A stretch of DNA of 64,000 nucleotides, from the NCBI GenBank assembly GCA_964016885.1, contig CAXHJY010000142.1, forward strand, positions 1 through 64,000. The letters run 5' to 3'. Shown one piece after another: positions 12,093 to 34,043 of this stretch. The translations under genes and the position numbers were made by a program. This DNA is from Eledone cirrhosa. Its lineage: Eukaryota. The notes beneath the pieces were generated by a model that made no database searches, had not been told where the DNA came from, and was given only the letters and a program-made list of their open reading frames with translations. Every line of letters begins with the position of its first letter. Positions within the stretch are counted from its first letter, which is position 1.

Positions 12093-12130
<38 letters not shown>

Positions 12131-12451
12131 GTTAGAGGGAGAGAGAGAGAGAGAGTTAGAGGGAGAGAGAGAGAGAGAGAGAGACAGAGAGAGTTAGAGA
12201 GAGAGAGAGAGTTAGAGGGAGAGAGAGAGAGAGAGAGACAGAGAGAGTTAGAGAGAGAGAGAGAGAGAGACAGAGAGAGTTAGAGGGAGAGAGAGAGAGA
12301 GACAGAGAGAGTTAGAGAGAGAGAGAGAGAGACAGAGAGAGTTAGAGGGAGAGAGAGAGAGAGTTAGAGGGAGAGAGAGAGAGAGACAGGGAGAGTTAGA
12401 GAGAATGAGAGAGATAGAGGGAGAGAGAGAGAGAGAGAGACAGAGAGAGTT

Positions 12452-12484
<33 letters not shown>

Positions 12485-12518
12485 GTTAGAGGGAGAGAGA
12501 GAGAGAGACAGAGAGAGT

Positions 12519-12556
<38 letters not shown>

Positions 12557-12836
12557 GTTAGAGGGAGAGAGAGAGAGAGACAGAGAGAGTTAGAGAGAGA
12601 GAGAGAGAATGAGAGAGATAGGGGGAGAGAGAGAGACAGAGAGAGTTAGAGAGAGAGAGAGAGAATGAGAGAGATAGAGGGAGAGAGAGAGAGACAGAGA
12701 GAGTTAGAGAGAGAGAGAGAGACAGAGAGAGTTAGAGGGAGAGAGAGAGAGAGACAGAGAGAGTTAGAGAGAGAGAGAGAATGAGAGAGATAGGGGGAGA
12801 GAGAGAGAGAGAGTTAGAGAGAGAGAGAGAGAGAGT

Positions 12837-12919
<83 letters not shown>

Positions 12920-13326
12920 AGAGGGAGAGAGAGAGACAGAGAGAGTTAGAGAGAGAAAGAGAGAATGAGAGAGTTAGAGGGGGAGAGAGAGAGACAGAGA
13001 GAGTTAGAGAGAGAGAGAGACAGAGAGAGTTAGAGAGAGAGAGAGAGAGAGAGTTAGAGGGAGAGAGAGAGAGAGAGTTAGAGGGAGAGAGAGAGAGAGA
13101 GAGAGTTAGAGGGAGAGAGAGAGAGACAGAGAGAGTTAGAGAGAGAGAGAGAGAATGAGAGAGATAGAGGGGGAGAGAGAGAGAGAGAGAGTTAGAGGGA
13201 GAGAGAGAGAGACAGAGAGAGTTAGAGGGAGAGAGAGAGAGACAGAGAGAGTTAGAGGGAGAGAGAGAGAATGAGAGAGATAGAGGGAGAGAGAGAGAGA
13301 CAGAGAGAGTTAGAGAGAGAGAGAGA
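11851..13326. repeat. 1.5-kb compound (GA)n polypurine tract with recurrent GACA, GTTA and GAAT interruptions
   Basis: Directly visible; ends about 11 bp from the exon 4 boundary. Confidence 0.95.
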
Positions 13327-13337
13327 CATGAAATTAC

Positions 13338-13461
13338 CTTAAGTAGTCGACTCATTTGATCATTTTTGTCCTTAGATTTTCCAGGTGTGGTAGAGTTTGA
13401 ACTTGGATCAGCAGTAACGTTGGGCCACACCCGTAAGTCATGCATGCCCTGGCGGAATGTT
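13338..13461 (-). CDS. PIK3C3: Vps34 coding exon 4
   Basis: CAG|A...AAG|GTAATT. 124 bp, (G)[41 protein letters not shown]; human [17 protein letters not shown]. Confidence 0.95.
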
Positions 13462-14002
13462 CTGGAAACAGAGACATATGTAATTACTGGTACCTAAGCC
13501 ACACTGAATAAACACATGCTTACATACACACATATACATACACACATGCTTACATACACACATATACATACACACATGCATACACACATATACATACACA
13601 CATGCATACACACATATACATACACACATGCATACACACATATACATACACACATGCATACACGCACACCCTATTTAGGTTCAGACAACACACACATAGA
13701 AACATACATAATAATGGAACAGTAAAAAAAAAAATATATATATACATATAATAATAATGAAATTATTGTGTAAAGTGCTCAGGTGCACTACAACTCATCA
13801 AAGGTGCATGTATAGTACATAGAATAATATACAAATGCCAGGGAAGTGAATAGTGTATGAGTCATGATATACATGTGTATATGTAAAATATTGCAAAAGT
13901 TCTACAATGTAAAAGCTATTAGAAACTGACTCACTCTCTATTGGTAAAAATTTATAAAATTATAAAATCCGAAGAACATACATACACACATACATATATA
14001 CA

Positions 14003-14280
14003 TGATGGCTACAAACTCTGGTAAGAATATTGCCAAGGTTTGGTGCACTTTTAGGCTACGGTCAGCCACACGAACCTGTAACATATCCTGAACAAGCAAT
14101 GCCTCTGCTTTGAAGGCTTTTTTAAGTGTGAAAAGGCCTTGCACTCTACTAATCCCACTCTCTGAGCATCGAAAACACTACCCGAAAAAGAGAACTGGTC
14201 AACATCATCGGATGCTTCTGAAGCCACAGGTTTTTTTTCAGAGTTTCAGTGACAACAACTGGGGGCCTTTCACTCCCAAC
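14003..14280 (-). mobile_element. (AT)n-associated element, 3' portion
   Basis: Minus strand GATGCTCAGAGAGTGGGATT...GAGTTTGTAGCCATCAT followed by a microsatellite; homologous to 28696-28927. Confidence 0.65.
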
Positions 14281-15015
14281 ATATATACATACATATGTAT
14301 ACATACATACATCATCATTATCGTTTAACATCCATCTTCCATGTTAACATGGTTTAGACAGTTTTGTTCCATTTGATGCGGGAATGGTCGGGAGACCGTG
14401 TCTTGCTCATACGGAAGGGTCTCTGGCAGGTTTTTTACACACACATATATACATACATACATATATACATACATATATACACATATATCATCATCACCGT
14501 TTTATGTCCGTTCTTCCACACTAGCATACATATATATATAATACATACATACACAAAAATACATTTACATACAAAAGTGTATATGTGTGATGTTGAAAAA
14601 TAATTTATGTGAAAAATAATTTAAGAGTGAAAAATAAAAGTACAAATAGCTAGTTAGCCATCTATGTAAATATATAGATGGCAACAGGCTGGTCCCTGAC
14701 AAAGTCCTCCTCTTCCTCCCGCGCATCAATCTAAATATTGATTTCTAAACTGGACACGAGGCCACAAATTTTGGAGCGGGGCCATAGCTGATTATTCTTA
14801 ATTGGTACCATATCTGATGGCATATGAAACCCAATTTGGGGGGCAGGAAGGTATAAAAAAAGAAGGCTTTAAAAATATCCATGTCCTATAAGCAAAGTTA
14901 AGCTACATTCTTTAATTAGATTAGATGAAAATGAGTCCCAGCAATAGCTGGGAGTTAACTCTGTGATGGACTGGCATCCTGTCCAGGGAACAGTATTATA
15001 CTCTCAGTCACTTAA

Positions 15016-15215
15016 CACTTTAGCATTTACATTATATATATTAATGCAATTTCATGGTTAAGTTCTCTCACATAATATTGAATCTATAAGGTTTTGATAT
15101 TATTTAACTTGAGAACCATACCTTAACATCAGTATGAGCAACCAGTTACAGCCGGTTTGAACAGAAAGAGGTGAGAGAATTCTGGCTGGATGTGACTGGT
15201 TTAAATGCTAAAGGG
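15016..15215 (+). mobile_element. TTAA MITE nested in a V-like SINE (14925-15270)
   Basis: SINE sequence CTCTCAGTCAC|TTAA ... TTAA|TACCGATGAAACTGGGATAA is split at a TTAA. Confidence 0.8.
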
Positions 15216-15638
15216 TTAATACCGATGAAACTGGGATAAACCCTGGCCTAATGCACCTCTGGGCTTGGGACAGCTGTAACTCTTCTTTTGAAATAAATTT
15301 ACCCATTTTAAAGGTTGCCAATTTAAATTAAAATCTTCCAACATAATTTTATATAAGAACCTTACATTAAGTTACTCTCTTAGTAATGAAATTAATAATA
15401 ATTTTAGTAAATTCTTCTAATGGTTTCTAATTTAGGCACAAGGTCAGCAATTTTGATAGAAGAGGGAGTTGATTATATCAACTCTGTATGTAACTAGATA
15501 GGTACTGTATTTTATTAACTCCGGAAGGATGGAAAGCAAAGTTGACCTCAGCAGGATTTGAACTGAGGACACAGAGAGAGCAAGAACAGGTGTTTAGCGA
15601 TGATGTAGAATTGTAGAAGAGAAGAACAGGACACTCAC

Positions 15639-15782
15639 CCTCGTTTACCAAACAAACTGATGACAGTACCGCCAACTGGTACTGATTTGTTGGTGCCATA
15701 GAGGTCCCAGACTGTAAGGGCCAACATAGCATTTCTTGGAAGATCACTGTATTTCACAGGTAATGTTAACCACTCATTCCAG
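15639..15782 (-). CDS. PIK3C3: Vps34 coding exon 3 (C2 domain)
   Basis: CAG|C...GG|GTGAGT. 144 bp, [47 protein letters not shown]; human [26 protein letters not shown]. Confidence 0.95.
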
Positions 15783-15836
15783 CTGTGAAAGAAAGAGACA
15801 ATAGAGGGTTAATCATAATCATCATCATCATTTTAA

Positions 15837-16057
15837 CCCTTTAGCATTTACATTACTCTATATATACTATTGTATTTTTGTGCTAAAGGCTTTATCTTAC
15901 ATAATTATCTCACATGATATCGAATCTATGAGATTTTGCTGTCATTTATTTTGAGAACAATACTTTAACATCAGTATGGGTGGTCAGTTACAGGTAGTTT
16001 GAACAGAAAGTGGTGAGAGAAGTCTGGCCAGATATGGCCAGTTTAAATGCTAAAGGG
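15837..16057 (+). mobile_element. TTAA MITE
   Basis: TTAA-CCCTTTAGCATTTA...TAAATGCTAAAGGG-TTAA. Confidence 0.85.
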
Positions 16058-16738
16058 TTAAAGTATTTTTTCAATGCTGGAATATGATTTTACAGACAAG
16101 GTCCACTGGCAGGTGACCCAGAGATAGACTAGGAGCAACATGGTTGAATAACATCCATAACATTGGTAGGTCATGCTTGGAGATCCAGCTGGATCATTTG
16201 GAGATGGTTGCTACTAACAGAATCCTCTGGAAGGTGTGTGTCAGTAGACTCTGCTGCCATGACTTTCTCAGGAATATGTGAGCGAAAAAGAAGATATATG
16301 TTGAGCAATAACTAACACACACCCACAAATGAACACATACTCAAAAATAAATACACACACCCACCCAGACAATCAAAGACATAGTCGCACACACAAATAA
16401 AACAAACAGGCACATACACAAAAATAAACAGACACACACACACTCAAACAGATGTATCCAAACAGACACACACAGAAACAGACACACATACACTCAAACA
16501 GACATATCCAAACAGACACACACAAACAGACATACACAAACAGACACATACACAAAAATAAGCAGACACACATAAACAAACATATACACAGACACACAGA
16601 CACAAATGTGCACATAAACACCAACATACAGACATGCACAAAAACAAACATATACACAGACACAAACTCATACACACAGAGAAAGTATAGTAGTATTTTA
16701 GTAAAGCAAGTTTTATGGTGAAACAGAAAGCTACTTAC

Positions 16739-16927
16739 TTCCATCTTGTGGTGAATGATTTGAAAGATGTCTGGACAGGAAGCGACAATGATCTGGAGTC
16801 AGAGAAGATTTGACACGTGACATAAAGGTCAGAACAGCCTTCAGTATAGACCCCAGAAAATTTTAGAATTGGATCATTCAGGAAGTCTTTGTAACTTGGT
16901 CTATTACGGCATCCTTCCAGCGTGCCT
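16739..16927 (-). CDS. PIK3C3: Vps34 coding exon 2
   Basis: TAG|A...AA|GTAAGT. 189 bp, [62 protein letters not shown]; human [24 protein letters not shown]. Confidence 0.95.
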
Positions 16928-17075
16928 CTACAATATAGAAAATAATGGTTCTTGGTGATTTAGGTACAAGGATAACAATTTTTTGGGGAGGGGAAAGTCG
17001 ATTAAATCGACCTTAGTGTGTTACTGGTACTTTATTTTGTTGACTGCAGTAAAGATTCTACAGAAAAATTTATTT

Positions 17076-17330
17076 TGAAAGTGTAAGGCCCGATGTGTGT
17101 GTAAATTAAGTGACAGGTATTTGTATGTATGTGTGTATATGTATGTATGTGTGTATGAAAGTGTAAGGCCAATGTGTGTGTAAATTAAGTGACAGGTATT
17201 TGTATGTATGTGTGTATATGTATGTATGTGTGTATGAAAGTGTAAGGCCGATGTGTGTGTACATTAAGTGACAGGTATTTGTATGTATGTGTGTATATGT
17301 ATGTATGTGTGTATATGTATGTATGTATGT
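17076..17330. repeat. About 80-bp tandem repeat, 3 copies
   Basis: TGAAAGTGTAAGGCC...TTAAGTGACAGGTATTTGTATG at 17076, 17156 and 17235. Confidence 0.85.
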
Positions 17331-18134
17331 ATTAAAGGTTGAAAGTTACTTCAACATAAAAATTGACTTTGAAAGTATAAGGCTGATAATTGAATGTAAA
17401 AAGATTGATAAGAAAGGCCCCAAAAAAAACTACAGGTCTTTGTATGTATGTGTGTATTTTTATGTCGAAAATAAAGGGTTAAAGTTACTTATACAGAAAA
17501 ATATAGTTTGAAAGTGTAAGGCCGATTGAAAAACTTAGTTTAGTAAATGAAAGTCAGCTTCGGAAATGGAGTTTGAACGCGCTAATACAAACACACACAC
17601 ATATATCCATCTTTTAGTGTGTCTGTTTGTTTCTCTCTCCCTCTTTATCATTATATCCCTCTTTATCATAATATGCTATTGTTATTTCTAAAACAAACTG
17701 TGTATGCGTTGATTGATTGAAATTCCTGCGTTCCTGTTTCTATGATGTCAATCGTAACCATACCAACATATATGTGTGTGTATGCACCCACATATATGTG
17801 TGTATATGTTTGTTTTCAATGTTTCTCTTTTTCACAAACACTTATAAGAGAAGGTAGCAATTTTAAGGGGAGGTGATGAAGGGAGTAGATATAGGAAACG
17901 TATATCATATGAGAGAGGAGAAATCATCGATTGTTGAAATAAATCGATTTTTCCGTAATTGGGGCATTTTTTACCCAATAAGTTCGCCCATGACCCAAGT
18001 TAGAATATTTGTAAACATTCTGCTTAATTATTCATTCAATATTTTTGGAATTGTGTAAATGTATAACATTGAAACATACATACAGACACAAAAATCTGCC
18101 TTTTATAGATAATGATACATACACACACACACAC

Positions 18135-18186
<52 letters not shown>

Positions 18187-18191
18187 GTATT

Positions 18192-18384
18192 AGTTTTAAT
18201 ATACAAGAGCTTCTACAGGACTAGAACTGTTTCATGTGTGAGAAATCATCAGGAAGCTTCCTGGTGATTTCTCAAGAATGAAACAGTTCTAGTCCTGTAG
18301 AAGCTCTTCTATATTAAAACTTTTATACCCTGCTATGTATTGAGTACCTTATTTACTGTGGTTACTCCCGATTCAACCTGTTAT

Positions 18385-18387
<3 letters not shown>
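18192..18387. mobile_element. Palindromic hammerhead-bearing Penelope-like pseudo-LTR element between (AT)n tracts
   Basis: 65-bp arms (18192-18256 / 18257-18321) centred on GAAGCTTC. Each arm has a hammerhead fold (AGCTTC-CTG.TGA-stem II-GAAACAG-TTCTAGTC-CTGTA-GAAGCT). Tail ATGTATTGAGTACCTT. Confidence 0.7.
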
Positions 18388-18429
<42 letters not shown>

Positions 18430-18859
18430 ACACACATCATCATCATCATCATCATCATCATTTCATTTTACGTCTGCTTTTTCCCTGCTTGCACGGGTGA
18501 GACGGGAACTGATTCTGGCTTGATTTCTACAGCTGGATGCCCTTCCTAACACCAACCTCATTTACAGTGAGTGCTGGGTGCTTTTTTGCCGTGGCACCTC
18601 CACGACCACTCTGCAGTGGAATGATAGGGACCTCAGTCCTATCATCTCATTTCTACAGGTGAGTAAACTGGAGCAATGTGAAATAAAGTGTCTTGCTCAA
18701 GGAAACAACACAACACCCGGTCTGAGAATTGAACTCACAACCTTTCGATTACAAGGCCAATGCTCTAACCACTAAGCCATTCATATATATAGAGAAGAAT
18801 ATTTAGACTTTACTCCATTTTATATCACAATATTATCTGCAACAAGCCAAGGAATGGAC

Positions 18860-19325
18860 CTCTACTTGGCTGCTTGGTTTGTAGAAATAGCAGCTAAATA
18901 TCTCAAATCCCACCCTACTATCTTAACATCGACACACTAGATAATGTATTCCTTGACACATTATCTTGAAATACACACATAAATAGGATGTGATGTTCAC
19001 AGCTGGAAAGCCTTTTGATCATAAATCTACTTGACCTGGGGCTAAACAAAAACAACAAGATGTGTAATGATCTTTTGATCATAGGTCTACTTGATCAGAG
19101 CTGACCTAGGGCTAAACAACAACGTTATCTGTAATAATCTTTTGATCATAGGTCTACTTGATCACAGCTGACCTAGGGCCAAACAACAACGTTATCTGTA
19201 ATAATCTTTTGATCATAGGTCTACATGATCACAGCTGACCTAGGGCCAAATAACAACGTTATCTGTAATAATCTTTTGATCATAGGTTTACTTGATCACA
19301 GCTGACCTAGGGCCAAACAACAACA
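18860..19325 (+). repeat. SINE-like element whose 3' tail is amplified into a 67-bp minisatellite (about 5 copies)
   Basis: CTTTTGATCATAGGTCTACTTGATC...GCTGACCTAGGGC.AAACAACAAC at 19072, 19139, 19206 and 19273; a single copy of the same tail is at 27742-27800. Confidence 0.8.
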
Positions 19326-19611
19326 CCATTATCTGAAATAGTCTTTAGACCCAATTATGTCCACAGACATAACTACTCCATCTCATACATTATCTAACTC
19401 CACTTACATTTTCTCTCCATCTCCCCTCCCTCCTTCTCTCTCTTCCTCTCCCTCTTACTCCTAATCTATATTAGTTCTATTTATCTGAAATCTTTGATAT
19501 CTCATTTCCTCCATCTGTTGTTCAGTTCCACCACTCCACACCACCCTTACTCTAGCTACACCTTTTTATTTTCCACCATATATTTTGTCTACAACAATGA
19601 TGTTAGTTTTA

Positions 19612-20438
19612 GGTTTGTAATGGCTCAATTACTAGTCCCTTGCCTTTGTAATGGCTCAATTACTGGTCCCTTGCCTTTGTAATGGCTCAATTACTGGTCC
19701 CTTGCCTTTGTAATGGCTCAATTACTGGTTCCCTGCCTTTGTAATGGTTCAATTACTGGTTCCCTGCCTTTGTAATGGCTCAATTACTGGTTCCTTACCT
19801 TTGTAATGACTCAATTCCTAGTTCCCTGCCTTTGTAATGGCTCAATTATTGGTTCCCTGCCTTTGTAATGGCTCAATTACTGGTTCCCTGCCTTTCTAAT
19901 GACTCAATTCCTAGTTTCCTGCCTTTGTAATGACTCAATTACTGGTTCCCTGCCTTTGTAATGGCTCAATTACTGGTCCCTTGCCTTTGTAATGGCTCAA
20001 TTACTGGTTCCTTACCTTTGTAATGACTCAATTCCTAGTTCCCTGCCTTTGTAATGGCTCAATTACTGGTTCCTTACCTTTGTAATGACTCAATTACTAG
20101 TCCCTTGCCTTTGTAATGGCTCAATTACTGGTCCCTTGCCTTTGTAATGGCTCAATTACTGGTCCCTTGCCTTGTAATGGCTCAATTACTGGTTCCCTGC
20201 CTTTGTAATGGTTCAATTACTGGTTCCCTGCCTTTGTAATGGCTCAATTACTGGTTCCTTACCTTTGTAATGACTCAATTCCTAGTTCCCTGCCTTTGTA
20301 ATGGCTCAATTATTGGTTCCCTGCCTTTGTAATGGCTCAATTACTGGTTCCCTGCCTTTCTAATGACTCAATTCCTAGTTTCCTGCCTTTGTAATGACTC
20401 AATTACTGGTTCCCTGCCTTTGTAATGACTCAATTACT
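19612..20438. repeat. 31-bp minisatellite (about 26 copies)
   Basis: Unit CTTTGTAATGGCTCAATTACTGGTTCCCTGC. Confidence 0.95.
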
Positions 20439-21039
20439 TTCGGTATCTGGGAGATATGGGGTTCCTCATAGCAGCCTATAGCAACTTCATTTTTTGTGTT
20501 GATGATTGTATACATATATAGATATACAGGAGGGGTACACTATAATGTTTTAAGTGCTTAGGACCTCAAAAGGGTTAAATCCTGCCCAGGCTTCCCCCAC
20601 AAGCTCACACATACATATACACTAGCTACATTTATCAATTGGTCTCATTAAAATATTACATATTTATCCAAGCAGTGAAATCTATTTGATCAATACCTAG
20701 TCTACGTTGATAACATACCATGATCAATAACTACCTTATGGTGCTGTCATTTCAGATGTTGTCTTTAGATAATTATTCTATATAAGAGAGCCCAAACCCA
20801 TAACCTTCTTAGAGTGGAACACAGTAATAGACGAGTGTAACAGCATTGCAGTTAATAGTTGGTTTTAAATATTGACGATAGGTATACTCTAGTGTTAGTG
20901 CCCACATAAAAGGGCACACAGTATGTGCAGGAAAGGGGTTAGGGATAGGAAAATCATCCAGCAATTAAAAATCATGTTACCCCTTTTCCCAAAAAACGAG
21001 AATTTATGTTAGAAATACGGAGAGAAAGGCAGAGCTTGG

Positions 21040-21360
21040 ATGAACTGATCGAGAAATTGGTTTTAAGAGGAATCTGAAGAGGTGTGTAAGAGAGAAGACT
21101 GTGTTGGTATGGACATTTTATGTGCATGGATGATGACTGCTGGGTGAATAAGTGCCAGGAAATCCCAGTGGAGGGAAGCTGCAGTAGAGGTAGACCAAGG
21201 AAGAACTGGGCCAAGGTGGTGAGAGCTGATCTCAAATCACTGAAACTCACAGAGGAAATGAAGAAGGAACACAGCAAATGGAGAGATGCTGTGCTGAAAA
21301 GGACCCGTCAAACTCATGTAGCTTGGTAAAATGGACATAAAAACAGTGATGATGATGATA
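21040..21360 (+). mobile_element. RTE LINE 3' end (degenerate)
   Basis: RRLCWYGHFMCMDDDCWVNKCQEIPVEGSCSRGRPRKNW; tail AAATGGACATAAAAACAGTGATGATG. Confidence 0.85.
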
Positions 21361-21564
21361 TATACATACACATGTAAAAACGGTGATGATGCTTTACGTC
21401 CATTTTCCACACTAGCATGGGTTAGACGAGTTGTTCTGTTGGGGGCAATGCTAGGTCAGGTGACCATGTCTTGCTCATACAGAATTGATTTTGGCTTGGT
21501 TTCTACAGCTGGATGCCCTTCCTAAAACTAATCTCATTTACAGTGTGGACTTGGTGCTTTTTGT

Positions 21565-21612
<48 letters not shown>

Positions 21613-21865
21613 TATATACATACACATGTACATATGTATGTATGAGTGTTTGAATATATATATCATCATTTGAACAGATGTTTGATTATGATGATGATAT
21701 ATATAGCTAACTATTAACCTATTGGATGTCTGTTGATTAGTTTAAGTTTAAAAGCTCATTTTCAATATTTGCCTTTCTCTTTCTTTACATATAGATATTT
21801 CTATATTAAATGTTGACTTTATTTATAAATATGCATACACACTATAGCGGACGTAAAATGATGAT

Positions 21866-22862
21866 GTTATAGTGTACATGTATATTTCTATATAAATTGT
21901 ATACATACATATTTATATATAAATTATATACATACGTATTTCTATATAAATTGTATACATACATATTTATATATAAATTATATACATACGTATTTATATA
22001 TAAATTATATACAGGTATATTTATATTTATATATACAGTGTAGATGCATATTTATATTTATATATATAGTGTACATGCATATTTATATATAAATTGTATA
22101 CATACATATTTATATATAAATTGTATACATACATATTTATATATAAATTATATACATACGTATTTATATATAAATTATATACAGGTATATTTATATTTAT
22201 ATATACAGTGTAGATGCATATTTATATATATATATAGTGTACATGCAAATTTTATATAAATTGTATACATGCATATTTATATATAAATTGTATACATACA
22301 TATTTATATATAAATTGTGTATATGCATATTTATATATAAATTGTATACATACATATTTATATATAAATTATATACATACGTATTTATATATAAATTATA
22401 TACAGGTATATTTATATTTATATATACAGTGTAGATGCATATTTATATATATATATAGTGTACATGCAAATTTTATATAAATTGTATACATGCATATTTA
22501 TATATAAATTGTATACATACATATTTATATATAAATTGTGTATATGCATATTTATATATAAATTGTATACATACATATTTATATATAAATTATATACATA
22601 CGTATTTATATATAAATTATATACAGGTATATTTATATTTATATATACAGTGTAGATGCATATTTATATATATATATAGTGTACATGCAAATTTTATATA
22701 AATTGTATACATGCATATTTATATATAAATTGTATACATACATATTTATATATAAATTGTGTACATACATATTTATATATAAATTGTGTATATGCATATT
22801 TATATATAAATTGTATACATAGATATTTATATGTAAATTGTGTAGATGCATATTTATATATA
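21866..22862. repeat. AT-rich short-unit satellite with 221-bp higher-order period
   Basis: Identical ORF translations at 22237 and 22458 give the 221-bp period; subunit ATATTTATATATAAATTGTATACATAC. Confidence 0.9.
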
Positions 22863-23044
22863 AAATCAACATTTAAAATAAAAATATAGAAATATATAAA
22901 CAGTCAATTGTACAGGATTATAACAGATGTAATGTTCTGGATGTTGTATATGCCACAATAACATATCTACTTAGGAAATGGTAGTAACTGTTCAGGATCT
23001 GTGAGTATAACTCTAGAATGGAGTGGTACTTACATATTACTTAA

Positions 23045-23278
23045 CCCTTTAGCATTTACATTACTCTATATTTACTACTGTATTTTCATGGTAAAGGCTT
23101 TACCTCACATGATTATTTCACATAATTACCTCACATAATATCGAATCTATGAGATTCTGATATTATTTACTTTGAGAACAATACCTTAACATAAGCATGA
23201 GCAGCCGGTTACAGCTATTTTGAACAGAAAGAGATGAGAGAATTCTGGCTAGATATGGCCAGTTTAAATGCTAAAGGG
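23045..23278 (+). mobile_element. TTAA MITE
   Basis: TIRs and TTAA on both sides; adjacent to a roughly 30-bp tandem repeat at 23340-23505. Confidence 0.85.
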
Positions 23279-24035
23279 TTAAAAAAACTGTTGCTAACTG
23301 TTCAGAATATGTATAACTCTGGAATGGAGAGGTACATATTATTTAAAAGACTGGAGTGGTTCTCACACATTACTTAAAAGATTGGAGTGGTACTCACATA
23401 TTACTTATAAGATTGGAGTGGTACTCACATATTATTTAAAAGACTGGAGTGGTTCACACATTACTTAAAAGATTGGAGTGGTACTCACATATTACTTAAA
23501 AGACTGTTGTTAACTGTTTACAATAATTTCTTGGGCTTCTTTGAGAAATAATGGAAATGAAATGAAAATCTTTACTCCTGTTTTAAATATGACTTCCAAC
23601 ATAGGCAAAGATATTCATCATACTGGCCCCAGTACTTGGAAAGTGGGTGACAAGGTGACAGGATCAATCCAAGGCCACATCAGAGCACTAGCGATGATAT
23701 GATAGCCAATGTGACATGTTAAGTGAAGTGAAATGATTATCACTGGGAATCGAACCTTGTACCTTGGACTCAATAGTTTACCACCTATTTACTATGTTAT
23801 ACAGCACTTGGCAGCAAGAAATGTTACCAAAGCCAAGTCTGAGAGTCTGACAATCTCAGCTGACATTTCATGTTGATCTATATTATAAGTGAACTTATTT
23901 ACACCAAAGAAGGCCTGACCTTCATTAGTGTAAGGGTTAGAAAATATTTCATCACTGAAATAGTTGTTTTATTGACCTTTTACAGTGGAACATATGTGAC
24001 AATAACAGTACTATAGAGATAGATAGATAGAAAGA

Positions 24036-24070
<35 letters not shown>

Positions 24071-24071
<1 letters not shown>

Positions 24072-24705
24072 CTATGTCGGGTCACTCTTGAGCGCTACTG
24101 GAAACATGTAACCCAGTACAACCTGTCACATAGTCGGGTCATCGGCGACTAAAGTGGCAACCCCACCAATTTAATTTGTGAGGAGGGTGCTTTTGGACAC
24201 CCTGCAGGACAAAAAAACAAAACCTGACAAAGGGCGGAAGAACTCATAAGAGTCAACGACCATCCAAAAGTGTGTAAACATGTATATATACATGTACATA
24301 TATATGTATATATGTATATGTGTATATAGATGGGTGCATGTGTATGTATATGCGCGGGGACATAGAAAAAGTCGGGCTGGACACCCGATCGTACGGTTAA
24401 ACCACTGGGAGTGACGGACCTCTAGCCTTTGTCAGGGCATTCTTCTAGGAGAAGGCAACTCAGGAAACTGGGATAACTCCGATATAAAACCTGCGGTTCA
24501 GTAGTTACCGATGATGTTGATCTTTTCTTCTTTTCGGGTTATAGCTACTGTCGCTGAGAGAGTGGGATTGGCTCAGTGCACAGTCTTTCCTCACTTTAAA
24601 AAAATATCTTCACGCACAGGCATTGCACGATAGAATTAATTAATAATTATTAATAATGGTATAACGTGCAATGGCCATACTCGATAATGAGGGGACAGCC
24701 ATCAT
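24071..24705 (+). mobile_element. (AT)n-associated element, most complete copy (internal microsatellite 24271-24355)
   Basis: Head homologous to 3165-3302 (minus); body CTAGCCTTTGTCAGGGC...GAGAGTGGGATTGG; end GACAGCCATCAT(AT)n. Confidence 0.75.
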
Positions 24706-25389
24706 ATATATATATATACATACATATGATAGATAGATATGTTTTTTTATTAGCCACAGGGGCACAAAAGATGGGGACAAATACAAAGGGGGAAGTTTAC
24801 ATACAATAAAAAACGTGTAAAATGTTATCACAAATGCAATTTGATAGATAGATAGATGGATAGATAGATAGATAGATAGACAAATAGTTAGATGGATAGA
24901 CAGATAGAGATAGATATAGAGAGAGATGGATAGATGGGTGGATGGAGGGATAGATATAGGGATAGATAGATAGATGGATGGATAGTTAGCTAGCTTGAGA
25001 GATAGATAGAGAGAGAGATACATAGATAGAGAGAAAGATGGATAGAAATATAGATATATAGAAAGATAATGGAGGAGTAGCTAGATAGATGGATAGATAA
25101 ATGGAGAATGGGTGGAACATATGTGACACTTACATAACGGTACAACAGAGATAGATAGAGAGATGGATAAAGGGAGAGGGGGTTCAAGATAGAAAAAGTG
25201 AGAGCGAACAGCTGTTGTACAGAGAAACATTACACTATCCTCTCCCCCACTACCAAACAACTTGTTATACAACTGATTACTAAACCACCACACACCAATA
25301 TAACCATACAGCCACCACCTACTACAACTACCACTGTACTACAACCACAACTACAACAACCACTAGCTCCATGGACACTTCCCCAGGGT

Positions 25390-25668
25390 GGGCAAGAGAG
25401 AAGATTGTGTTGGCATGGGCATATGATGCACATGGATGATGATAACTGGGTGAAGAAGTGCCACGAAATCCCAGTGTAAAGAAGCCGCAGTAGAGGCAGA
25501 CCAAGGAAGACCTGGGCAGAGGTCGTGAGAGCTGATCTCAAGTTGTTGAGACACACAAGGGAGATGACAAATGAGTGCAGTGTGTAGAGGGATGCTGTGC
25601 TGAAAAGGACCCACTAAACCCATGCAATCGTGGAAAAATGGGCGTAAAACGATGATGATGTCGATGAT
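25390..25668 (+). mobile_element. RTE LINE 3' end (degenerate)
   Basis: QERRLCWHGHMMHMDDDNWVKKCHEIPV*...RGRPRKTW; tail CCATGCAATCGTGGAAAAATGGGCGTAAAACGATGATG. Confidence 0.85.
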
Positions 25669-27164
25669 ATATATACACACATATTAAAAAAGAGAAATAT
25701 ATATGTTGTTATCGATTAGTCTTCACATCAATATATATTTTTTCCCTCTGAAACGATTGTAAAAAAATGGATTAATTAACTACTGCGCCTTGTTTTATTT
25801 TTCATTGTTCAATATTTTATAAAATGTGGTTGGTGTTAAGAAGGGCATCCAGCCGTAGAAAACCTGCCAGATAGTCCTATATGAGCGAGACACGGTCACC
25901 CGACCAACCTTGCCTCAAGTGGGACAACTCCCGTCTAACCCATGCTAGCGTGGAAAATAGACGTTAAACGAAGATGATGATGATGATGATATATATCTCC
26001 ACCTGTTGTTTTGACAATGAGTATTGCAGTTGTTCTAACAATGGAACAGCCTGCTCATGAAATTAACCTGTAAGTGGCTGAAACAAACATGTAGTCGTTT
26101 GAATTACAGGTACAGTTCATCTGACAGGCTTCCAAACAGTTTCCGCCTACCCAATTTCACTCACAGTGTGTGGGTCAACTTGAGGATATTGTAAACGGCA
26201 CTTGTCCAAGGTGCCATGCAGTGAGCTGGAACCCAGAACCTTCTGATTGTGAAGCGAACTTTTTAACTCCTTGGCCAAGCTGTGAACCAATTCTTTTTAT
26301 TAGTAAAAGGGGCAACGGATGAGAAGATATTACATGATGATGTTGATGTTGATGATGCTTTCTAAGAAAGACAGAGAAGTGGGTGTGTCAATTTTATCGA
26401 TCAGCCTCTGCCCTCTCTCTCAATACTTCGTTAATTGATATTAAGTAATATTTTATCTATCCCTAAAAGGATTAAAAACAAACCTAACTACCTCCCTGTC
26501 CCTTTTTATTTGCTACAGGGGAAAACGAAACAAACCGGACCACATTAGGCTGCTAGGGCTACGGGAGAGGAAGAGAGTATGACAGTTGCATAATATATCA
26601 ACCCCTCCTCCCTCAATAACTCCTTGTGGCACCGTCATACAGCGTGTGTAGGGCACTTTTAAACCTGAACCTGGAGGAGCCCAACTCTCTCCAGGTCTGA
26701 ACAACACAATCGATTTTTTTCTATAGAGGAAGAATCGACCCCATTACTGGACTGGTACTTTTTTTTTATCGATCTCGAAAGGATGAAAGGCAAAGTTGAC
26801 CCCGGCGGGATTTGGACTCAGTGCATGCAAAGGGGTGGGACGAATGCCGTAAAGCATTCTATCAGACGTCTTAACGACTCTACCAATACGCCGCCGCCTT
26901 AATATATCACAATAGGAAAAAAATAACATACACATGTAAACAACACAAAGGAGCAGACGAAGGAAGTGTCTTTGTGATAGCTTGGCATGCTAGAAACATC
27001 AGCCAAATGTTTCTCAAATCATCCACACACTCACTCCTGCTAGGACACGTTAGATAATGACACCCTGGAATTTTTTTCTTTAAATATAATTTTACTGAAG
27101 CGAAAATTTTATAGTTTAAAAGTGACATACAGAGATACATAAACAAATCAAAATTTAATCTGCG

Positions 27165-27275
27165 AGGTAGTAGTAGTAGTAATGGTGGTGATAGTAGTAG
27201 TAGTAATGGTGGTGATAGTAGTAGTAATAGAGGTAGTAGTAGTAGTAGCAGTAATATTAGTAGTGGTAGTAGTAG
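27165..27275. repeat. (TAG)/(TGG) microsatellite
   Basis: Directly visible. Confidence 0.9.
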
Positions 27276-28120
27276 GAAAGTTTGGATGGTTTAAAGATAA
27301 CGTCATCAGAAATGAATTAAAAGTCGAAAACATTCCAATAAAAATAACTACAACAACAACAGCAACAATACTATAACAATGTATACAGTAATGGCTTGAG
27401 TGTATTTGATCATAGTTTTAGCTACGACCAGAGCTGGCCTAGGGTTAAACAACACCAACAACATGTAAACAGACATGACCACTACTACTACTACTGCTGC
27501 TGCTACTGCTACTACTACTATTAATAATTGTTTCTACTTTTGGCACAAGGCCAGCAATTACTCAGTAAATTACTGGTACTTTATTTTATCGACCCCGTAT
27601 GGTTTCTGATTTGGGCACAAGGTCAACAATTTTGGTGGGAGGGGAAACTCGATTAAATCGACCCCAAATAATAAATATTTGGCCATAGGTCAGAGGTGGC
27701 TTCTTGTTATTACTATTATATATGTGGTCATGGTTGGAATGCCTTTGATCATAGGTCATTTCGACGATCAGAGCTAGCCTCGGGCTAAACAACAACAGCA
27801 CCACCAATATGTAAACAGAGGCGTAACCAAAAACATAAATAATAATATTTTTAAAAAGATGTTCAATTAAAATAAAATTATATGAATAAATAGAGTAAAC
27901 CGATAAAACGGGGTCGGATCCCGAAACATAGATTCGGGAGCCACCGAAAGCCCACTATCCTTAAATAATACAATATAAGGATTTCGTAATACATACATAC
28001 ATATACATATATATATATATATTTATTTGGCTCTGTTTAACTGCATTGAGCTATACCTTTTGCTATCATTTCTATAATACGAAGAGGGTGTTTAACTCCA
28101 ACACGCTCCAGTATTCTAAT

Positions 28121-28157
<37 letters not shown>

Positions 28158-28221
28158 CACAAATATATATATACTAATATATGTGTATATATATAAATAT
28201 ATATATATAATTTTTTTTATG

Positions 28222-28381
28222 AATATAGAAAAGGCTTCTACAGAACTAGAACTGTTTCATTCGGGCTTTCCTGATGATTTCCTTCGAATGAAACAGTTCT
28301 AGTCCTGTAGAAGCCTTTTCTATATTAAATTTATACTCAGCTATGTATTGAGTACCTTACTGTGGTTACCCCCGATTGAAC

Positions 28382-28382
<1 letters not shown>
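28222..28382 (+). mobile_element. Hammerhead-bearing Penelope-like pseudo-LTR element with inverted 5' arm
   Basis: 42-bp inverted arms (28222-28263 / 28285-28326); same family as 18192 and 53680; flanked by AT and CA microsatellites. Confidence 0.7.
28264..28315 (+). ncRNA. Type I hammerhead ribozyme motif with intact CUGAUGA/GAAA/GUA core
   Basis: GGCTTTC (stem I) CTGATGA T-TTC-CTTC-GAA-T (stem II) GAAACAG-TTCTAGTC-CTGT (stem III) A | GAAGCC. Predicted cleavage after 28309. Confidence 0.7.
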
Positions 28383-28457
<75 letters not shown>

Positions 28458-28695
28458 TGCGTATATATTAGTGTGTTTGTGTAGTAGGTGGTTCTGTATA
28501 GAGGAAAACAGTAAATTCAACGGGAGAATGGAAGGAACCAAGGTAGATCTTAAAGCTTAATAACAATGGATTCTCTCTTAGTGGGCAGTGGTCTAGTTGA
28601 CGGGATACAGAATTTAGCATATTACTGGTACTTAATAATGGTAACAACAACATTATTTGTATATATATGTGTGTGTATGTATATATATATATATT

Positions 28696-28927
28696 CGGAA
28701 GCATCCGATGCTGACCAGTTCTCCTTTACGGGTAGTGTTTGATGCTCAGAGAGTGGGATTGGTCAAGTGCAAGGGTTTTCCCCACTTAAAAAACCTTCAA
28801 AACACAGGCATTGCTTGTTCAGGATATGTTACAGGTTCCTTGTGGCTGGCCGTAGCCTAAAAGTGAACCATTTTCTGTAATCTGACAAGCAATTGCAATA
28901 CTCTTAGAAGAGTTTGCAGCCATCATA
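28696..28927 (+). mobile_element. (AT)n-associated element, 3' portion
   Basis: GATGCTCAGAGAGTGGGATTGG...GAGTTTGCAGCCATCAT(AT)n. Confidence 0.65.
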
Positions 28928-29068
28928 TATATATATATATATATATACATGTGTGTGTGTGTATTGTATATATATAGTTTGTGTGTATATATATATTTTT
29001 GTTTGTGTGAATATATATACACACACACACATATATATATATATACCTTTGTTTGTGTGAATATATAT

Positions 29069-29108
<40 letters not shown>

Positions 29109-29240
29109 ACATACAAACAACCATAGGTGCATAATTATACACACGCACTATATCGACAGGGAGGGAGTAGTTTTATTGGTATAGAAAATGTGAGTCAGAT
29201 ACGGAGAAATAGAAACGGGAGACGTTGGTAAGAGTGTGTA

Positions 29241-29287
<47 letters not shown>

Positions 29288-29347
29288 TGTGTGTAGGTAA
29301 GTAAGCAACAGTGGCTAAGTTGTACTTATTAGAGAACTCAACATGGG

Positions 29348-29398
<51 letters not shown>

Positions 29399-29592
29399 AT
29401 GTATGTAAGTGTGATCGTAAGTATATATATGTGTGTTGTGTGAAAGAAAGAGAGAACTATAGATAGAACGTGAGTGATGTATATAATTGTTTCTACTTTA
29501 GGCACAAGGCCAGCAATTACCCAGTGCATTACTGATATAATAGCAGAAAGACAGGACAATAATAGAAAGAAAAGAGATATTGGAAGACTTAC

Positions 29593-29663
29593 ATTTTTAT
29601 CTCTATATTGACGTCCAGATCACAACTATACACATAGCACAATCTATCTGGAACATCAGCCAT
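29593..29663 (-). CDS. PIK3C3: Vps34 first coding exon
   Basis: AAAACCATGG start context. MADVPDRLCYVYSCDLDVNIEIK(I)|GTAAGT; human [23 protein letters not shown]. The phase-2 junction fits exon 2. Confidence 0.92.
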
Positions 29664-30317: not shown

Positions 30318-31066
30318 TCTAGACCTAGCCTGCGCATCGGCGTTTCCCTGAGGCTCGGCCTCCGGATCTGCCAGCCACACCAATGTCGCTGCAGTTCCAC
30401 CGTGGACTCTTTCGGCCTCCACTCGCTTTCCTGTCGCCACAGTGGCGGCCGCATTCCACGCCATGCTGCCCCCAACGAGGTCATTAAGCGTGGTGTGGAC
30501 GCTGCAAGCTTCCCTTCCCAGCTCGAACCGGTGGGGTTGGATCGAGGGGACGGCAAAAGGCCAGATGGCATGACCATCTTCCCGTTCTGCGGTGGCAAAC
30601 CCCTCGTCTGGGATGCCACTTGCACCGACACTTTCTGCAGCCGCAACCTGGTGCAGTCTGCAACTGACCCAGGTTCTGCTGCACGTCGGGCTGAGGGGGC
30701 CAAACTCCTCAAATACCGGTCGCTCTCCGACAGGTTTTTTGGTCGTACCCCTGGCAGTGGAGACTTCTGGTGTCCTCGGCCCCAGGGCTACCTCCTTACT
30801 CACCACAATAGGCACCGAGCTGGCCAGCCGCAGGTGTGAGCCCCGCGAGTTGGAGTGGCTCTTCCAGCGCGTCTCCCTCGCCGTGCCCCGGGGAAACGCC
30901 TTCTCCATTCTGTCCGTCGGGGCTGTGGGTGGGCCCCATCGCGTACCGTTGTAGTTGTTGTAGGAGAAACGGGTTCCACTTGTATATTGTATATATTTTT
31001 CTTTTGTATATATTTTTCTTGGATATCTACACCTTCGAAAACGTATCTCTGTAAAATAAAAAAATA
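30318..31066 (+). mobile_element. 5'-truncated CRE-clade non-LTR retrotransposon (zinc knuckle plus restriction-like endonuclease), frameshifted
   Basis: GC-rich island. LRLGLRICQPHQCRC...GLHSLSC...RHAAPNEVI...LEPVGL...RPDG...WDATC...KLLKY; after a frameshift at the T-run near 30735, VPLAVETSGVLGP...FQRVSLAVPRGNA. A-rich tail at about 31053-31065. Confidence 0.85.
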
Positions 31067-31369: not shown

Positions 31370-31409
31370 TGACGTCATGCTACTTCCGGTTCGACATCAA
31401 AATGGCAGC
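31370..31409 (+). promoter_or_regulatory. Housekeeping-type proximal promoter motifs of PLRG1 (CRE/ATF, ETS, YY1-like)
   Basis: TGACGTCA at 31370-31377, ACTTCCGG at 31382-31389, CAAAATGGCAGC at 31398-31409 overlapping the ATG. Confidence 0.6.
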
Positions 31410-32319
31410 CGGTATAGACGATGTCTTGAAACACTCAGTGCATACATTGGTGTTTCGTTCACTGAAACGAACTCATGATATGTTCCTGTCTGATCAGAAC
31501 TTTATACCCACAATCGACGAAAAATGCGAGAAGCTATGGGCCGATATAAAATTACGCGGCGAATACAGCATGGTGAAAGACATGCCGCGACCCGAACCAC
31601 CGCACTCGAAAAAGCTCACAGAACACGTTGGAGGATCCAACTCGACCGGTCCGGGCGATCAAGACGGGGAACAAAATCAAGTAGAGTTCCGAAAGACTGT
31701 ATTGTCAGATGGATCGGTTGTGACCACACCTGTACCAAACAACATGCAGGTGACTACCTATGATTCCAAGACTTCCGACCAGAATTCCAAGATGTTAACT
31801 ACCTTGAATCAAACGTTAATCCCAAGAAAAGCCCCAACTATGCCCAAGCCGGAATGGCACCCTCCTTGGAAACTGTACAGAGTGATTTCTGGCCATTTAG
31901 GCTGGGTCCGATGTATATCTGTGGAACCGAAAAACGAATGGTTTGTTACGGGCGGCGGTGACCGCGTTATAAAAATCTGGGACTTGGCTAGTGGCACGCT
32001 AAAGTTGTCCCTGACAGGACATATCAGCTCTGTACGTGGCGTGTGTGTCAGTCCTCGCAACCCTTATCTCTTCTCTTGCGGTGAGGACAAACTGGTGAAG
32101 TGCTGGGACCTGGAATACAACAAAGTAATTCGCCACTACCATGGACATCTGAGTGCTGTTTACGGCCTTGATATTCATCCTACCATTGACGTATTGCTGT
32201 CGTGCGGACGTGATTCTACGGCCCGTGTCTGGGATATGCGGACAAAAGCGTGTGTCCACACCATGACTGGACACACCAACACTGTAGCTGTGGTCAAATG
32301 TCAAGCAGCTGAGCCACAG
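31402..32319 (+). CDS. PLRG1: Pleiotropic regulator 1 (Prp46, Prp19/NTC complex WD40 protein), exon 1 (306 codons)
   Basis: [20 protein letters not shown]-terminus, [25 protein letters not shown] and WD repeats; ends QAAEPQ|GTAAGT. The ORF-track extension past 32319 is intron read-through. Confidence 0.97.
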
Positions 32320-33237
32320 GTAAGTAAATTGTTCATTCTCTTTCGTTTTATAAAAACATATTTAAAAAATCCCAGACTTTCTGGTCCGAATAGAACATTT
32401 CCAAATGTTGACAGCCTGATTCGTTCTGGTTTTTACACACAGGCTTTAGTAAATGCAGGAATATTCTGTAATAATTTGTACAGTTTATGATATTATTATT
32501 GATTAAGGTTAATTTTACCTTGAAATCCTTACGGGGTCGATAAAATAAAGCACAAATAATACATTGGAATGATTGCTGGCCTTGTACCAAAAGTAGAAAC
32601 AATTATTGATTAGGGTTTGGGGTTCGTGTTGGCCTTTAGTTTAAGGTTAGGGTTAAGGGTTATGAGGCAGCTTTAGGGCATTCTATAACATTTACTACTG
32701 TTTATGGTACGTATTATTGATTAGGGGATCGGTTTGAGGTTAGTTTAAGGTTAGGGTTAAGAGTTAAGAAAAATCACGATTGGAAAACTAGTTGTTTTAG
32801 AATTTCTTTTATACTATACGCAAAAAATTGAATTGAACTGTTTACTTTTTGTTTTGAAAAGATATTGGATTCCCCATAAACATTGATTCATCGAGATAAG
32901 GTCTACCATGTTCGTTGACCTGCTAGAAATAGCAGCCATATCTACCTCAGATCACCTACCGTCTTGAAAGAAGGAAATATACATTAGATAATCTAGTCAT
33001 AGATACTCATAAAAATATGGTATTGTCCAGGCAGGAATGTTTCTGACTAGGTTTGGTTCACATTCTTTATACTCTTCCACATATATTTTTACTATTGTAC
33101 TATTTCATCATTGCCATCATCATTCTTGTGATTTAATGTTTGTTTTCTATACTTGCTTGGGTTAGATGGGTTCTCGTGTGCTGTGGCTTGACTGGTCAGG
33201 TGATCACATCTTACTCATACTCTCCATTTTAGTATGG

Positions 33238-33480
33238 TTTCTCAGGCTGGATTCTCTTCCTAACACCAGCCATTTTACAGTGTGTACTGGGAGCATATTT
33301 TCTACAGCTGGATGCTCTTTCTAACACTGACCACTTTACTGCATGTACTGGGAGCATGGGTTGTAAGGTCAGATGCCCTTCCTAACACCAGTCACTTTAC
33401 AGTGTATACTGGGAGCATGTTTTCTACAGCTGCATGTTCTTCCTAACTCTGACCACTTTGTAGAGTTCACTGGGTGTGTT
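33238..33480 (-). repeat. About 60-bp tandem repeat (4 copies) derived from a Meta-like SINE, inside the PLRG1 intron
   Basis: Repeated TTTCTACAGCTGGATG..CTTCCTAACAC..ACCACTTTAC...TACTGGGAGCAT. Confidence 0.75.
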
Positions 33481-34043
33481 TATCATGTGGATCACCTAAA
33501 CTAGAGAGGTTGCTCTTAACACAATGGAAGAGTCCACTCAATCCAGGTCTTCCTCTACTGCAGCTTCCCTCCACTGGATGTCTTAGCACTTCTTCACCCA
33601 ATGATCATGATCCATATGCCTCACATGATCACACCAGCACCATATTCTCTCCTGCACTGATTCATTTGATTCCTCTGATACTCAGTGTTTCTCTTAAATC
33701 TGCCTCCCATTAGCCTTCAATATTTGAAATTTTTTTTTGTTTTTATCACTTGTCTCACTAGTTCTTTTTGATTACCTACTGTAAGGAGTACTCAATGCTT
33801 CCCCTAGTCTGTTATGGTTTACTAGTTCTATACGTACGTTTAAATTGAATAAATGAATAGCATAAAATATTTAAAATAAGGTCCATCTCTAAAGATGTTG
33901 ATAATCTGGAAAATTATAATTTTATATAATATTTCCATTGTATTTTCATCATCATCATGTTTGTTTCCCTGCTTGCAGGTTGGATGGGTGTGTTTTATTT
34001 CTGTATTTGTTTTTCTTATATTTCTGTTTCTTTCCTTCCCTAG

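Follow-up and report, generated by a model that had tools for sequence, protein, structure and literature searches.

Truncated head-to-head insertions with a hammerhead motif in the octopus Eledone cirrhosa and their probable origin from a Penelope-like element

Layout of the three loci

The window, that is, the whole 64,000-nucleotide stretch of an Eledone cirrhosa contig that was analysed, contains three loci that share a common sequence and a tail. Copies 1 and 2 lie in the first intron, as judged by coding exons, of the host PIK3C3/Vps34 gene (16927-29591, minus strand). All three copies were recovered where a preliminary description of this DNA had placed them, with a 17-mer of the tail exact at 18335, 28343 and 53738. 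A pattern for the 3' half of the hammerhead matched five times in the 64 kb (minus strand at 18211, 28236 and 53683; plus strand at 18280 and 28290) and in 0 of 100 shuffles. The three loci thus hold five hammerhead-region arms, of which a single one (28264-28315, plus strand) has all three stems and the whole core, the other four being defective.

In copy 1, a 5'-truncated inverted arm without a tail (18192-18256, minus strand), with CUGAUGA intact at 18252 and stem II broken, meets the direct arm (18257-18321, plus strand), which comprises a hammerhead region with an A6G change (CUGGUGA; C3 at 18261, N17 at 18299), the 3' strand of stem I and a TA-rich stretch. The tail (18322-18387, plus strand) stands at one end only and carries a degenerate bulged hairpin with GTATTGAGTAC at 18337. 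Copy 2 starts with an inverted arm (28222-28263, minus strand) that begins within stem II and lacks both CUGAUGA and tail, followed on the plus strand by the complete type I hammerhead motif (28264-28315), a TA-rich stretch (28316-28334) in which the inverted arms have their end point, and the tail (28335-28382), made up of a bulged hairpin (28335-28355) like those at the ends of Hydra-clade Penelope-like elements (PLEs) and 27 nt to the distal end. Copy 3 consists of an inverted arm (53676-53721, minus strand), the counterpart of 28274-28319 with a truncated core, an unrelated 16-nt filler and a direct part that is tail alone (53738-53778, plus strand). The inverted arms of copies 2 and 3 are cut inside or behind CUGAUGA. 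The tail, about 50-65 nt long, is absent from all three inverted arms and present in all three direct parts.

It had been proposed that the copies begin with an inverted copy of their own 5' part, and this is true of copies 1 and 2 only. The inverted repeat of copy 1 spans 65 nt at 92% complementarity with no spacer (18192-18256/18257-18321), both arms starting from the same base at the self-complementary AAGCTT where it turns, and that of copy 2 spans 42 nt at 98% with a 21-nt spacer (28222-28263/28285-28326). Copy 3, an inverted arm joined to tail alone, has no internal palindrome (0 pairs), and the inversion point varies from copy to copy. Direct tandems (pLTR) were found in none of the three window loci, and the 125-nt stretch examined in read data is too short to show one.

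Copy 1 is flanked by (TA)n target tracts on the left (18136-18191) and right (18388-18426), and copy 2 by a (CA)n/(TA)n tract on the right (28383-28458). The placement of the copies between (AT)/(CA) tracts holds for five of the six ends, which lie at most 15 bp from a dinucleotide tract, the exception being the right end of copy 3. Since such tracts make up 12.7% of the window, the expected background for end positions, this agrees with the suggested targeting of (TA)n. No TSD is readable within the microsatellite.

The hammerhead motif

The segment 28264-28315, which had been folded by hand as a type I hammerhead, is the sole canonical descriptor match in the window (C3 at 28271, N17 at 28309). 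Stem I pairs 28264-70 with 28310-15 around one bulged U; the core is formed by CUGAUGA (28271-77) and GAAA (28290-93), with a predicted cut after 28309; stem II pairs 28279-81 with 28286-88 below loop II (28282-85), on a U28278.U28289 base; and stem III pairs 28293-96 with 28305-08 below an 8-nt loop that contains CTAG. With stems of 4/3/2 the descriptor matched in 3 of 100 shuffles, and with stems of 5/3/3 in neither window nor shuffles, the lack of a window match being due to the bulged U in stem I of copy 2. The Rfam hammerhead models gave no match, whether across the window (to E=1) or to 28255-28335 (to E=10). By MFE, the copy 2 57-mer folds no better than its shuffles (z=0.55), and folding of the tail hairpin is weak (z -2.0 to 0.1). 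Across the five arms, stem covariation amounts to one double change in 13 pairs, a value reached by 175 of 500 shuffles, and the read data give no linkage. The proposal that stem III could pair between two molecules was borne out by a computed -12.8 kcal/mol. When the whole palindromes are folded, the hammerhead pair probabilities are 0.0, so that in the folding model the palindrome hides the ribozyme.

The U-U pair at the base of stem II had been called atypical, but most Hydra-clade PLEs have it (14 of 25 families by our own count on the supplement table of PMC8557442), and so does the axolotl HHR_Amex2, a ribozyme that does cleave (PMC7229834).

The family in sequencing runs

Read data were examined for 4 of the 22 listed runs, all of them non-RNA. 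The family is abundant: two runs yielded 14,504 and 16,610 contigs, and a third yielded 8,552 reads out of 12.5 million. Small word shares in other runs (0.04-0.13, including four RNA rows) were discounted as evidence, because the query contained microsatellite flanks. Two patterns gave no family match in the viral contig collection, where a looser core pattern found seven loci, none belonging to the family; there were likewise no family matches in the genome contig collection, and the single match in the metagenome contig collection (L001) was a chance 21-mer without core or tail.

In run X20, other letters reached at least 30% at just 4 of the 45 hammerhead positions, and these, 28282-28285, are exactly loop II (P=7e-6 for the exact place, P=3e-4 for any run of four). 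Among the positions listed, variants fell on 0 of 11 core and 12 of 34 other positions (P=0.019), a comparison that would move to P=0.67 if the four further variant rows beyond those listed all fell in the core, and one made under an 80% read filter that favours conserved reads.

Read depth is about 2.8-fold lower in the tail than in the hammerhead, with the drop at 28325-28339, and loose read or contig ends, which are TA-rich, lie behind 28312-28335. Read ends that pile up at 28377 in run X20 were left out of the evidence because reduced-representation libraries end at restriction sites. On the other side, copies outside the window run upstream of the hammerhead into common sequence, of which 30 letters were recovered; the loose ends before 28264 in runs X6 (11 contigs, agreement 0.78) and X4 (214 contigs, 0.56) concur on a TATA-like upstream sequence, a motif absent from the window.

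Of the 15 joints listed, out of 65 in the read data, 14 connect opposite strands: seven connect two points within 28264-28288, and seven connect such a point to 28329-28340, the layout of copy 3. The one remaining listed joint steps back 27 nt without changing strand. Some joints share 1-3 letters.

Origin and mode of insertion

The anatomy of the loci is that of the published PLE insertion, which has an inverted, 5'-truncated copy beside the 5' end and a 30-40-bp tail at one end (PMC8557442, PMC3846280), and several features match the ends of Hydra-clade PLEs; the suggested PLE origin is supported. Octopus is known to have Hydra-clade PLEs (Hydra-1_Obim), and PLEs, of which O. vulgaris has 190 families, make up 6.83% of the genome of that species. 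In the Hydra clade (Craig 2021, PMC8557442; examples include Hydra-1_Amil and Hydra-2_Amil), as here, a type I hammerhead lies near the 3' end and the targets are (TA)n, a preference recorded in the supplement for 26 of 27 families; stem II of their hammerheads is likewise flanked on both sides by an extra base, mostly giving U-U. Penelope-9_HM shares the layout of U, 3-bp stem, 4-nt loop and U, and Penelope-13_HM has an inverted 5'-truncated copy. The ACAG/CUGU-A stem III of our family has its counterpart in ACAG/CTGT in 4 of 25 families, whereas loop III is 1-3 nt in the clade and 8 nt with a central CTAG here. The family also differs from the clade in being known without a linked ORF and as very many stumps of 100-200 bp.

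Minimal PLE hammerheads (Cervera and de la Pena 2014, PMC4209133) resemble ours in having CUGANGA plus one extra base, a palindromic helix III, mostly solo motifs in truncated PLEs and close opposite-strand pairs, but in our family U-U replaces G10.1-C11.1, helix II has 3 bp and helix III has 4 bp with an 8-nt loop. The head-to-head inverted copy, one-sided tail and AT-rich targets are those of the PLE insertion unit (Arkhipova et al. 2013, PMC3846280; Frangieh et al. 2024, PMC11167929), from which the loci depart in that both halves are only 40-130 nt, there is no direct pLTR tandem and the tail is longer (about 50-65 versus 30-40). Naiad PLEs, in contrast to our family with its hammerhead motif, lack a canonical hammerhead.

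The preliminary description had taken the copies for self-contained, non-autonomous units. This is not supported, since copies continue upstream, the inversion point varies, four of five arms are defective and the palindrome, as modelled, conceals the ribozyme; the upstream continuation and the variable inversion point make it likely that the loci are stumps left when a longer parent inserted. The interpretation in which we have considerable confidence is that they are dead insertions, which likely arose by a two-start mechanism and in which severe 5' truncation left just the 3' end of a longer PLE, probably of the Hydra clade as judged from sequence likeness. The parent would carry an ORF. 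No RT or GIY-YIG ORF linked to the copies was found among the window ORFs or in the 30 upstream letters: the 159 window ORFs of at least 62 aa held no PLE-type domain (Pfam), and eight short Hydra peptide motifs had no exact match in the six frames of the window, whose sole RT match, at 1-939, is LINE-like and 17 kb away. Hydra-clade proteins are marked by RWK and DKT motifs and a CxCX5C linker, and they lack CCHH. A motif search and inspection of the 3' ends led us to reject both Hydra-1_Obim and the octopus Naiads as the parent: Hydra-1_Obim differs in sequence from the family and has a different hammerhead, and the Naiad consensus file lacks the motifs. Nor were the family motifs found on the forward strand of the Craig 2021 supplement (PMC8557442), where line breaks could mask a match.

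The likely two-start mechanism is borrowed by analogy from another PLE clade: in vitro, a Poseidon PLE was found to start reverse transcription at two sites on either side of the tail, to nick both strands and to use AT-rich targets (PMC11167929). By this route, the RT-GIY-YIG protein of the presumed parent would nick both strands of a (TA)n tract, and reverse transcription would begin at two sites bracketing the tail, a proximal one near 28325-28335, likely in the TA-rich stretch, and a distal one near 28377-28385. Both cDNAs would halt after 40-130 nt and be joined head to head, yielding an inverted arm without tail followed by a direct part with tail, made anew at each insertion. The hammerhead may act in the parent's tandem transcript, where any cleavage would probably involve a dimer formed through the self-complementary stem III and perhaps aid from a protein; in the stumps it would be a passenger, hidden by the long hairpin.

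A variant of the same PLE origin, in which a single nascent strand folds back and primes itself to make the mirror arm, with no second priming event, is possible, if clearly the less probable. Arkhipova et al. 2013 (PMC3846280) interpret junction palindromes as self-priming, and the turn of copy 1 on AAGCTT with arms from the same base, together with the 1-3 letters shared at some joints, would fit. Copy 3, however, has a direct part of tail alone, as do 7 of the 14 opposite-strand joints (among the 15 of 65 listed), so that the inverted arm would have no template there unless the direct arm was deleted later.

It is quite unlikely, though conceivable, that the source was a short ORF-less master consisting of a TATA-like box, the hammerhead and the tail, transcribed and mobilised in trans by a Hydra-type PLE, with the window copies as its truncated insertions; this is a weaker version of the non-autonomous unit of the preliminary description. 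The very high copy number, the shortness of nearly all pieces in the read data and the recovery of just 30 nt upstream speak for such a master, and non-autonomous PLE derivatives exist (Chlamys; retrozymes). Against it, comparison by eye places this TATA-like stretch in autonomous Hydra consensus sequences too, 30-35 nt ahead of the hammerhead; PLE copies normally show heavy 5' truncation (PMC8557442), and the unit forms no tandem array in the window.

Dispersed monomers of a non-LTR retrozyme, whose head-to-tail tandem hammerhead repeats give circular RNA (Cervera and de la Pena 2020, PMC7229834), are very improbable: HHR_Amex2 is likewise a type I hammerhead with U-U at the helix II base, dimer cleavage is plausible in both cases, and such monomers are dispersed in frogs, but our loci are head-to-head single insertions, no tandem copies occur in the window, whose tandem arrays hold no hammerhead core, same-strand return is limited to the one listed joint, and the core has the PLE-type extra nucleotide, plus the tail. 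A foldback/MITE-like or Helitron-derived DNA element with a chance resemblance to a hammerhead, which the long inverted repeats, the silence of Rfam, the unremarkable MFE fold and the loose descriptor matches in shuffles could favour, is largely refuted, because the inverted repeats, with the tail beyond them, do not form the termini, vary in their centre and are missing from copy 3, while the hypervariable block coincides with loop II and there are several independent points of agreement with Hydra PLE ends.

Both the form of insertion and the hammerhead are already published for PLEs, and in this respect the element is ordinary; it would add a very abundant octopus family, missed by Rfam, to the small Hydra clade. 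Its thousands of junctions permit a genome-scale test of two-start priming versus fold-back self-priming. Where they lie in introns, the copies supply ready-made hairpins to an animal whose hyper-editing is exceptional (PMC5625713). One may speculate, although we hold it rather unlikely, that a protein-free master (a TATA-like box, a dimer-forming hammerhead and a Hydra-wide tail hairpin serving as RT landing signal), copied in trans, seeded tens of thousands of perfect hairpins of 40-65 bp in octopus introns and so became a main built-in dsRNA source behind A-to-I hyper-editing. The bulged tail hairpin, seemingly common to coral, sea cucumber and copepod Hydra elements, is a candidate RNA signal setting the reverse-transcription starts, and the part of the Craig 2021 text available to us (PMC8557442) contains no mention of it that we found. 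As compared by eye, Hydra-2_Amil and Hydra-2_Ajap have the arrangement RCTC-stem-loop-stem-2 nt-GAGY-AC at 25-26 nt from the end, and the hairpin of copy 2 lies 27 nt from it; in Hydra-1_Crog it is imperfect and 43 nt from the end, and in Hydra-1_Ajap it stands at the 5' start.

The repeat loci and their family

All three repeat loci are present in the 64-kb window, where the hammerhead's 3' half is found five times, as against none in 100 shuffles. The loci are real and the family is abundant. The mirror-image build that the preliminary description ascribed to them holds for two of the three: copy 1 (18192-18387) is a 65-bp palindrome with zero spacer and a tail, and copy 2 (28222-28382) a 42-bp palindrome with a 21-nt spacer and a tail, whereas copy 3 (53676-53778) has an inverted arm, i.e. 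a minus-strand piece of the hammerhead region, then a 16-nt filler and then the tail with no other direct (plus-strand) part. The complete type I hammerhead in copy 2 was recovered by descriptor search as the one canonical match in the window, at 28271 with a predicted cut after 28309, at a stringency that also gave a match in 3 of 100 shuffles. The remaining four arms are either truncated or otherwise defective, an Rfam search of the window returned no hammerhead, the isolated copy 2 motif folds no better than shuffles, and covariation among the window's five arms is not significant.

For the wider family, segment 28260-28384 of copy 2 was compared at 80% likeness with four of 22 listed sequencing runs. 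It matched 14,504 contigs in run X1, 16,610 in X4 (another species label), 109 in X6 (a third label), and 8,552 of the 12,467,656 raw reads of X20. The last figure translates into ~11,000 arms with the hammerhead and ~4,000 tails at that likeness, assuming the 2.8-Gb genome of O. vulgaris and an even coverage that a RAD library does not give; extrapolation from the window's three loci gives 27,000-384,000. The copy number is of the order of 10^4 to 10^5. In X20, the four motif positions with 34-74% other letters, 28282-28285, coincide exactly with loop II as predicted (P=7e-6 for this location out of 45 positions). The core appears conserved relative to the rest, the variable positions listed comprising 0 of 11 in the core and 12 of 34 elsewhere (P=0.019, rising to 0.67 were four further variable positions, beyond those listed, all core). 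Of all the data, this pattern in loop II and core speaks most strongly for selection on the hammerhead fold in the source elements.

Probable affinity to Penelope-like elements

According to Craig et al. 2021 (PMC8557442), insertions of Penelope-like elements (PLEs) are truncated on the 5' side, where a shortened inverted copy adjoins them, and carry a tail at one of their ends; PLE hammerheads found singly or on opposite strands have been reported as what is left of truncated elements (Cervera and de la Pena 2014, PMC4209133). No PLE ORF linked to the family was found in the window, so that membership of the PLEs and of their Hydra clade rests on non-coding features. These support the Penelope-like origin claimed earlier: the family very probably behaves like a PLE end, the loci are probably stumps, or truncated short copies, of an ORF-bearing parent, and Hydra-clade membership is the reading we lean towards.

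In the tables of PMC8557442 consulted, a (TA)n preference is entered for 26 of 27 Hydra-clade families, and by our count U...U stands at the stem II base in 14 of 25. The U-U pair of copy 2, previously called atypical, is therefore in frequent company, and it recurs in the axolotl HHR_Amex2, whose monomer cleaves 22% in an hour and whose dimer does better (PMC7229834). Copy 2 and Penelope-9_HM agree in their U/3-bp/4-nt/U stem II, and the ACAG/CTGT stem III is found in 4 of the 25 families (PMC8557442). The 3' ends of five of the six new Hydra consensus sequences in that paper were compared by eye. Hydra-2_Amil and Hydra-2_Ajap end 25-26 nt past a hairpin of the form RCTC-stem-loop-stem-2 nt-GAGY-AC, of which Hydra-1_Crog has an imperfect version; Hydra-1_Obim and Hydra-1_Ajap are tail-less and stop at a TA-rich stretch, the latter with the hairpin at its 5' start. 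Such a hairpin stands at 28335-28355 in copy 2, 27 nt from the end of the copy, and the inverted arm of copy 2 stops at a TA-rich stretch like the two tail-less sequences. The hairpin of copy 2 folds weakly, and its T at 28339 is the family's majority letter. Unlike the Hydra families, copy 2 has an 8-nt loop III with a central CTAG and a longer tail, and the family has no sequence match to Hydra-1_Obim or to octopus Naiads, another PLE group.

Two islands between (TA)n tracts, at 5191-5349 (+) and 63767-63873 (-), carry the tail motif GTATTGAGTAC (five exact matches in the window vs 0.09 by chance) with a different inner stem and no hammerhead core in either; they are probably stumps left by the tails of related PLE families.

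We found no description of the family in the literature searched, related work being PMC8967140, PMC6962438, PMC5625713 and bioRxiv 10.64898/2026.07.22.740005. PLEs, sorted into 190 families, are put at 6.83% of the O. vulgaris genome (PMC13282606), and the family may already be catalogued in that library, in Repbase or in Dfam. An ORF-less master, a clade-wide tail signal and a major ADAR substrate, taken as one joint reading, seem improbable.

Origin of the mirror arm

The copies had been taken for non-autonomous, ORF-less units. Other copies of the family continue upstream of 28264 into a common sequence: the loose ends in X6 (agreement 0.78, 11 contigs) and X4 (0.56, 214 contigs) converge on one sequence opening with a TATA-like box and absent from the window, which argues for a longer parent. 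Agreement is low (0.39-0.54) for many of the other loose ends at this point, as expected of mixed junctions. Among the 15 joints listed, of 65, 14 switch strand, seven within 28264-28288 and seven leading from there to 28329-28340, as in copy 3. Because they switch at differing points, the mirror arm appears to be made anew at each insertion.

For a Poseidon PLE, Frangieh et al. 2024 (PMC11167929) showed nicking and extension of each strand of AT-rich DNA, with reverse transcription starting at two sites that flank the tail; the hammerhead of that element needs protein to cleave, and insertion in vitro does not require it. By analogy, one cDNA would begin at the distal start and carry the tail, a second would begin at the proximal start without it, and both would end early and be joined head to head. 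A simple fold-back (PMC3846280) suits the self-complementary centre of copy 1 equally well, but in copy 3 and half of the strand-switching joints listed the inverted arm has sequence missing from the direct part, and fold-back would have to call on a later deletion of the direct arm, which may have happened. On these layouts we favour two-start priming over fold-back.

The hammerhead motif and its genomic setting

The hammerhead pair probability is 0.0 in whole palindromes, 0.01-0.34 without the inverted arm and at most 0.49 in the bare motif, and the sole complete hammerhead, that of copy 2, is antisense to the PIK3C3 pre-mRNA; ribozyme activity within the stumps is thus predicted to be unlikely. 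Stem III pairing between two molecules, computed at -12.8 kcal/mol, would be in line with cleavage as a dimer in the parent, a mode reviewed in PMC6765202. A loose core pattern also matched four phage contigs (L005-L008) that share an identical 1-kb stretch, with an intergenic type III hammerhead-like fold at ~2975-3030 (+) that has no Rfam match and shares with copy 2 a U-U-closed 3-bp stem II; 22 of 200,000 random contexts yield its stems I and III, and the locus is one of four independent pattern matches.

The interval that separates coding exon 1 of PIK3C3 (29663-29592, minus strand) from coding exon 2 (16926-16741, minus strand) contains both copy 1 and copy 2. PIK3C3/Vps34 (9964-29663, -) and PLRG1 (31402-34553, +) stand head to head with start codons ~1.7 kb apart; the PLRG1 exon matches Octopus vulgaris PLRG1 at 92% identity, the runner-up standing at 78-79%, and the PIK3C3 exon is 93% identical to Argonauta, which makes the host an octopod. 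A frame between the two starts, at 30318-30836 (+), has no Pfam match and contains an RPDG...WD-T-DT stretch reminiscent of the restriction-like endonuclease found in non-LTR elements. At 1-939 (-) lies an open 313-aa LINE-type reverse transcriptase fragment, presumably RTE, with an inserted PHD-like zinc finger. The window is rich in microsatellites and holds a 7-kb array at 41170-48261 (199 copies of a 36-bp unit, strong GC skew) and many further minisatellites with units of 27-106 bp, e.g. at 57672-58409, 60060-60909 and 61810-62899. Isolated near-perfect hairpins at 3536-3631 and 54090-54178, with weak miRNA-family matches below gathering score, are possibly MITE-like, and a weak tRNA-like match at 18722-18779 (-; 28.3 bits, E 0.094) is possibly a SINE head.
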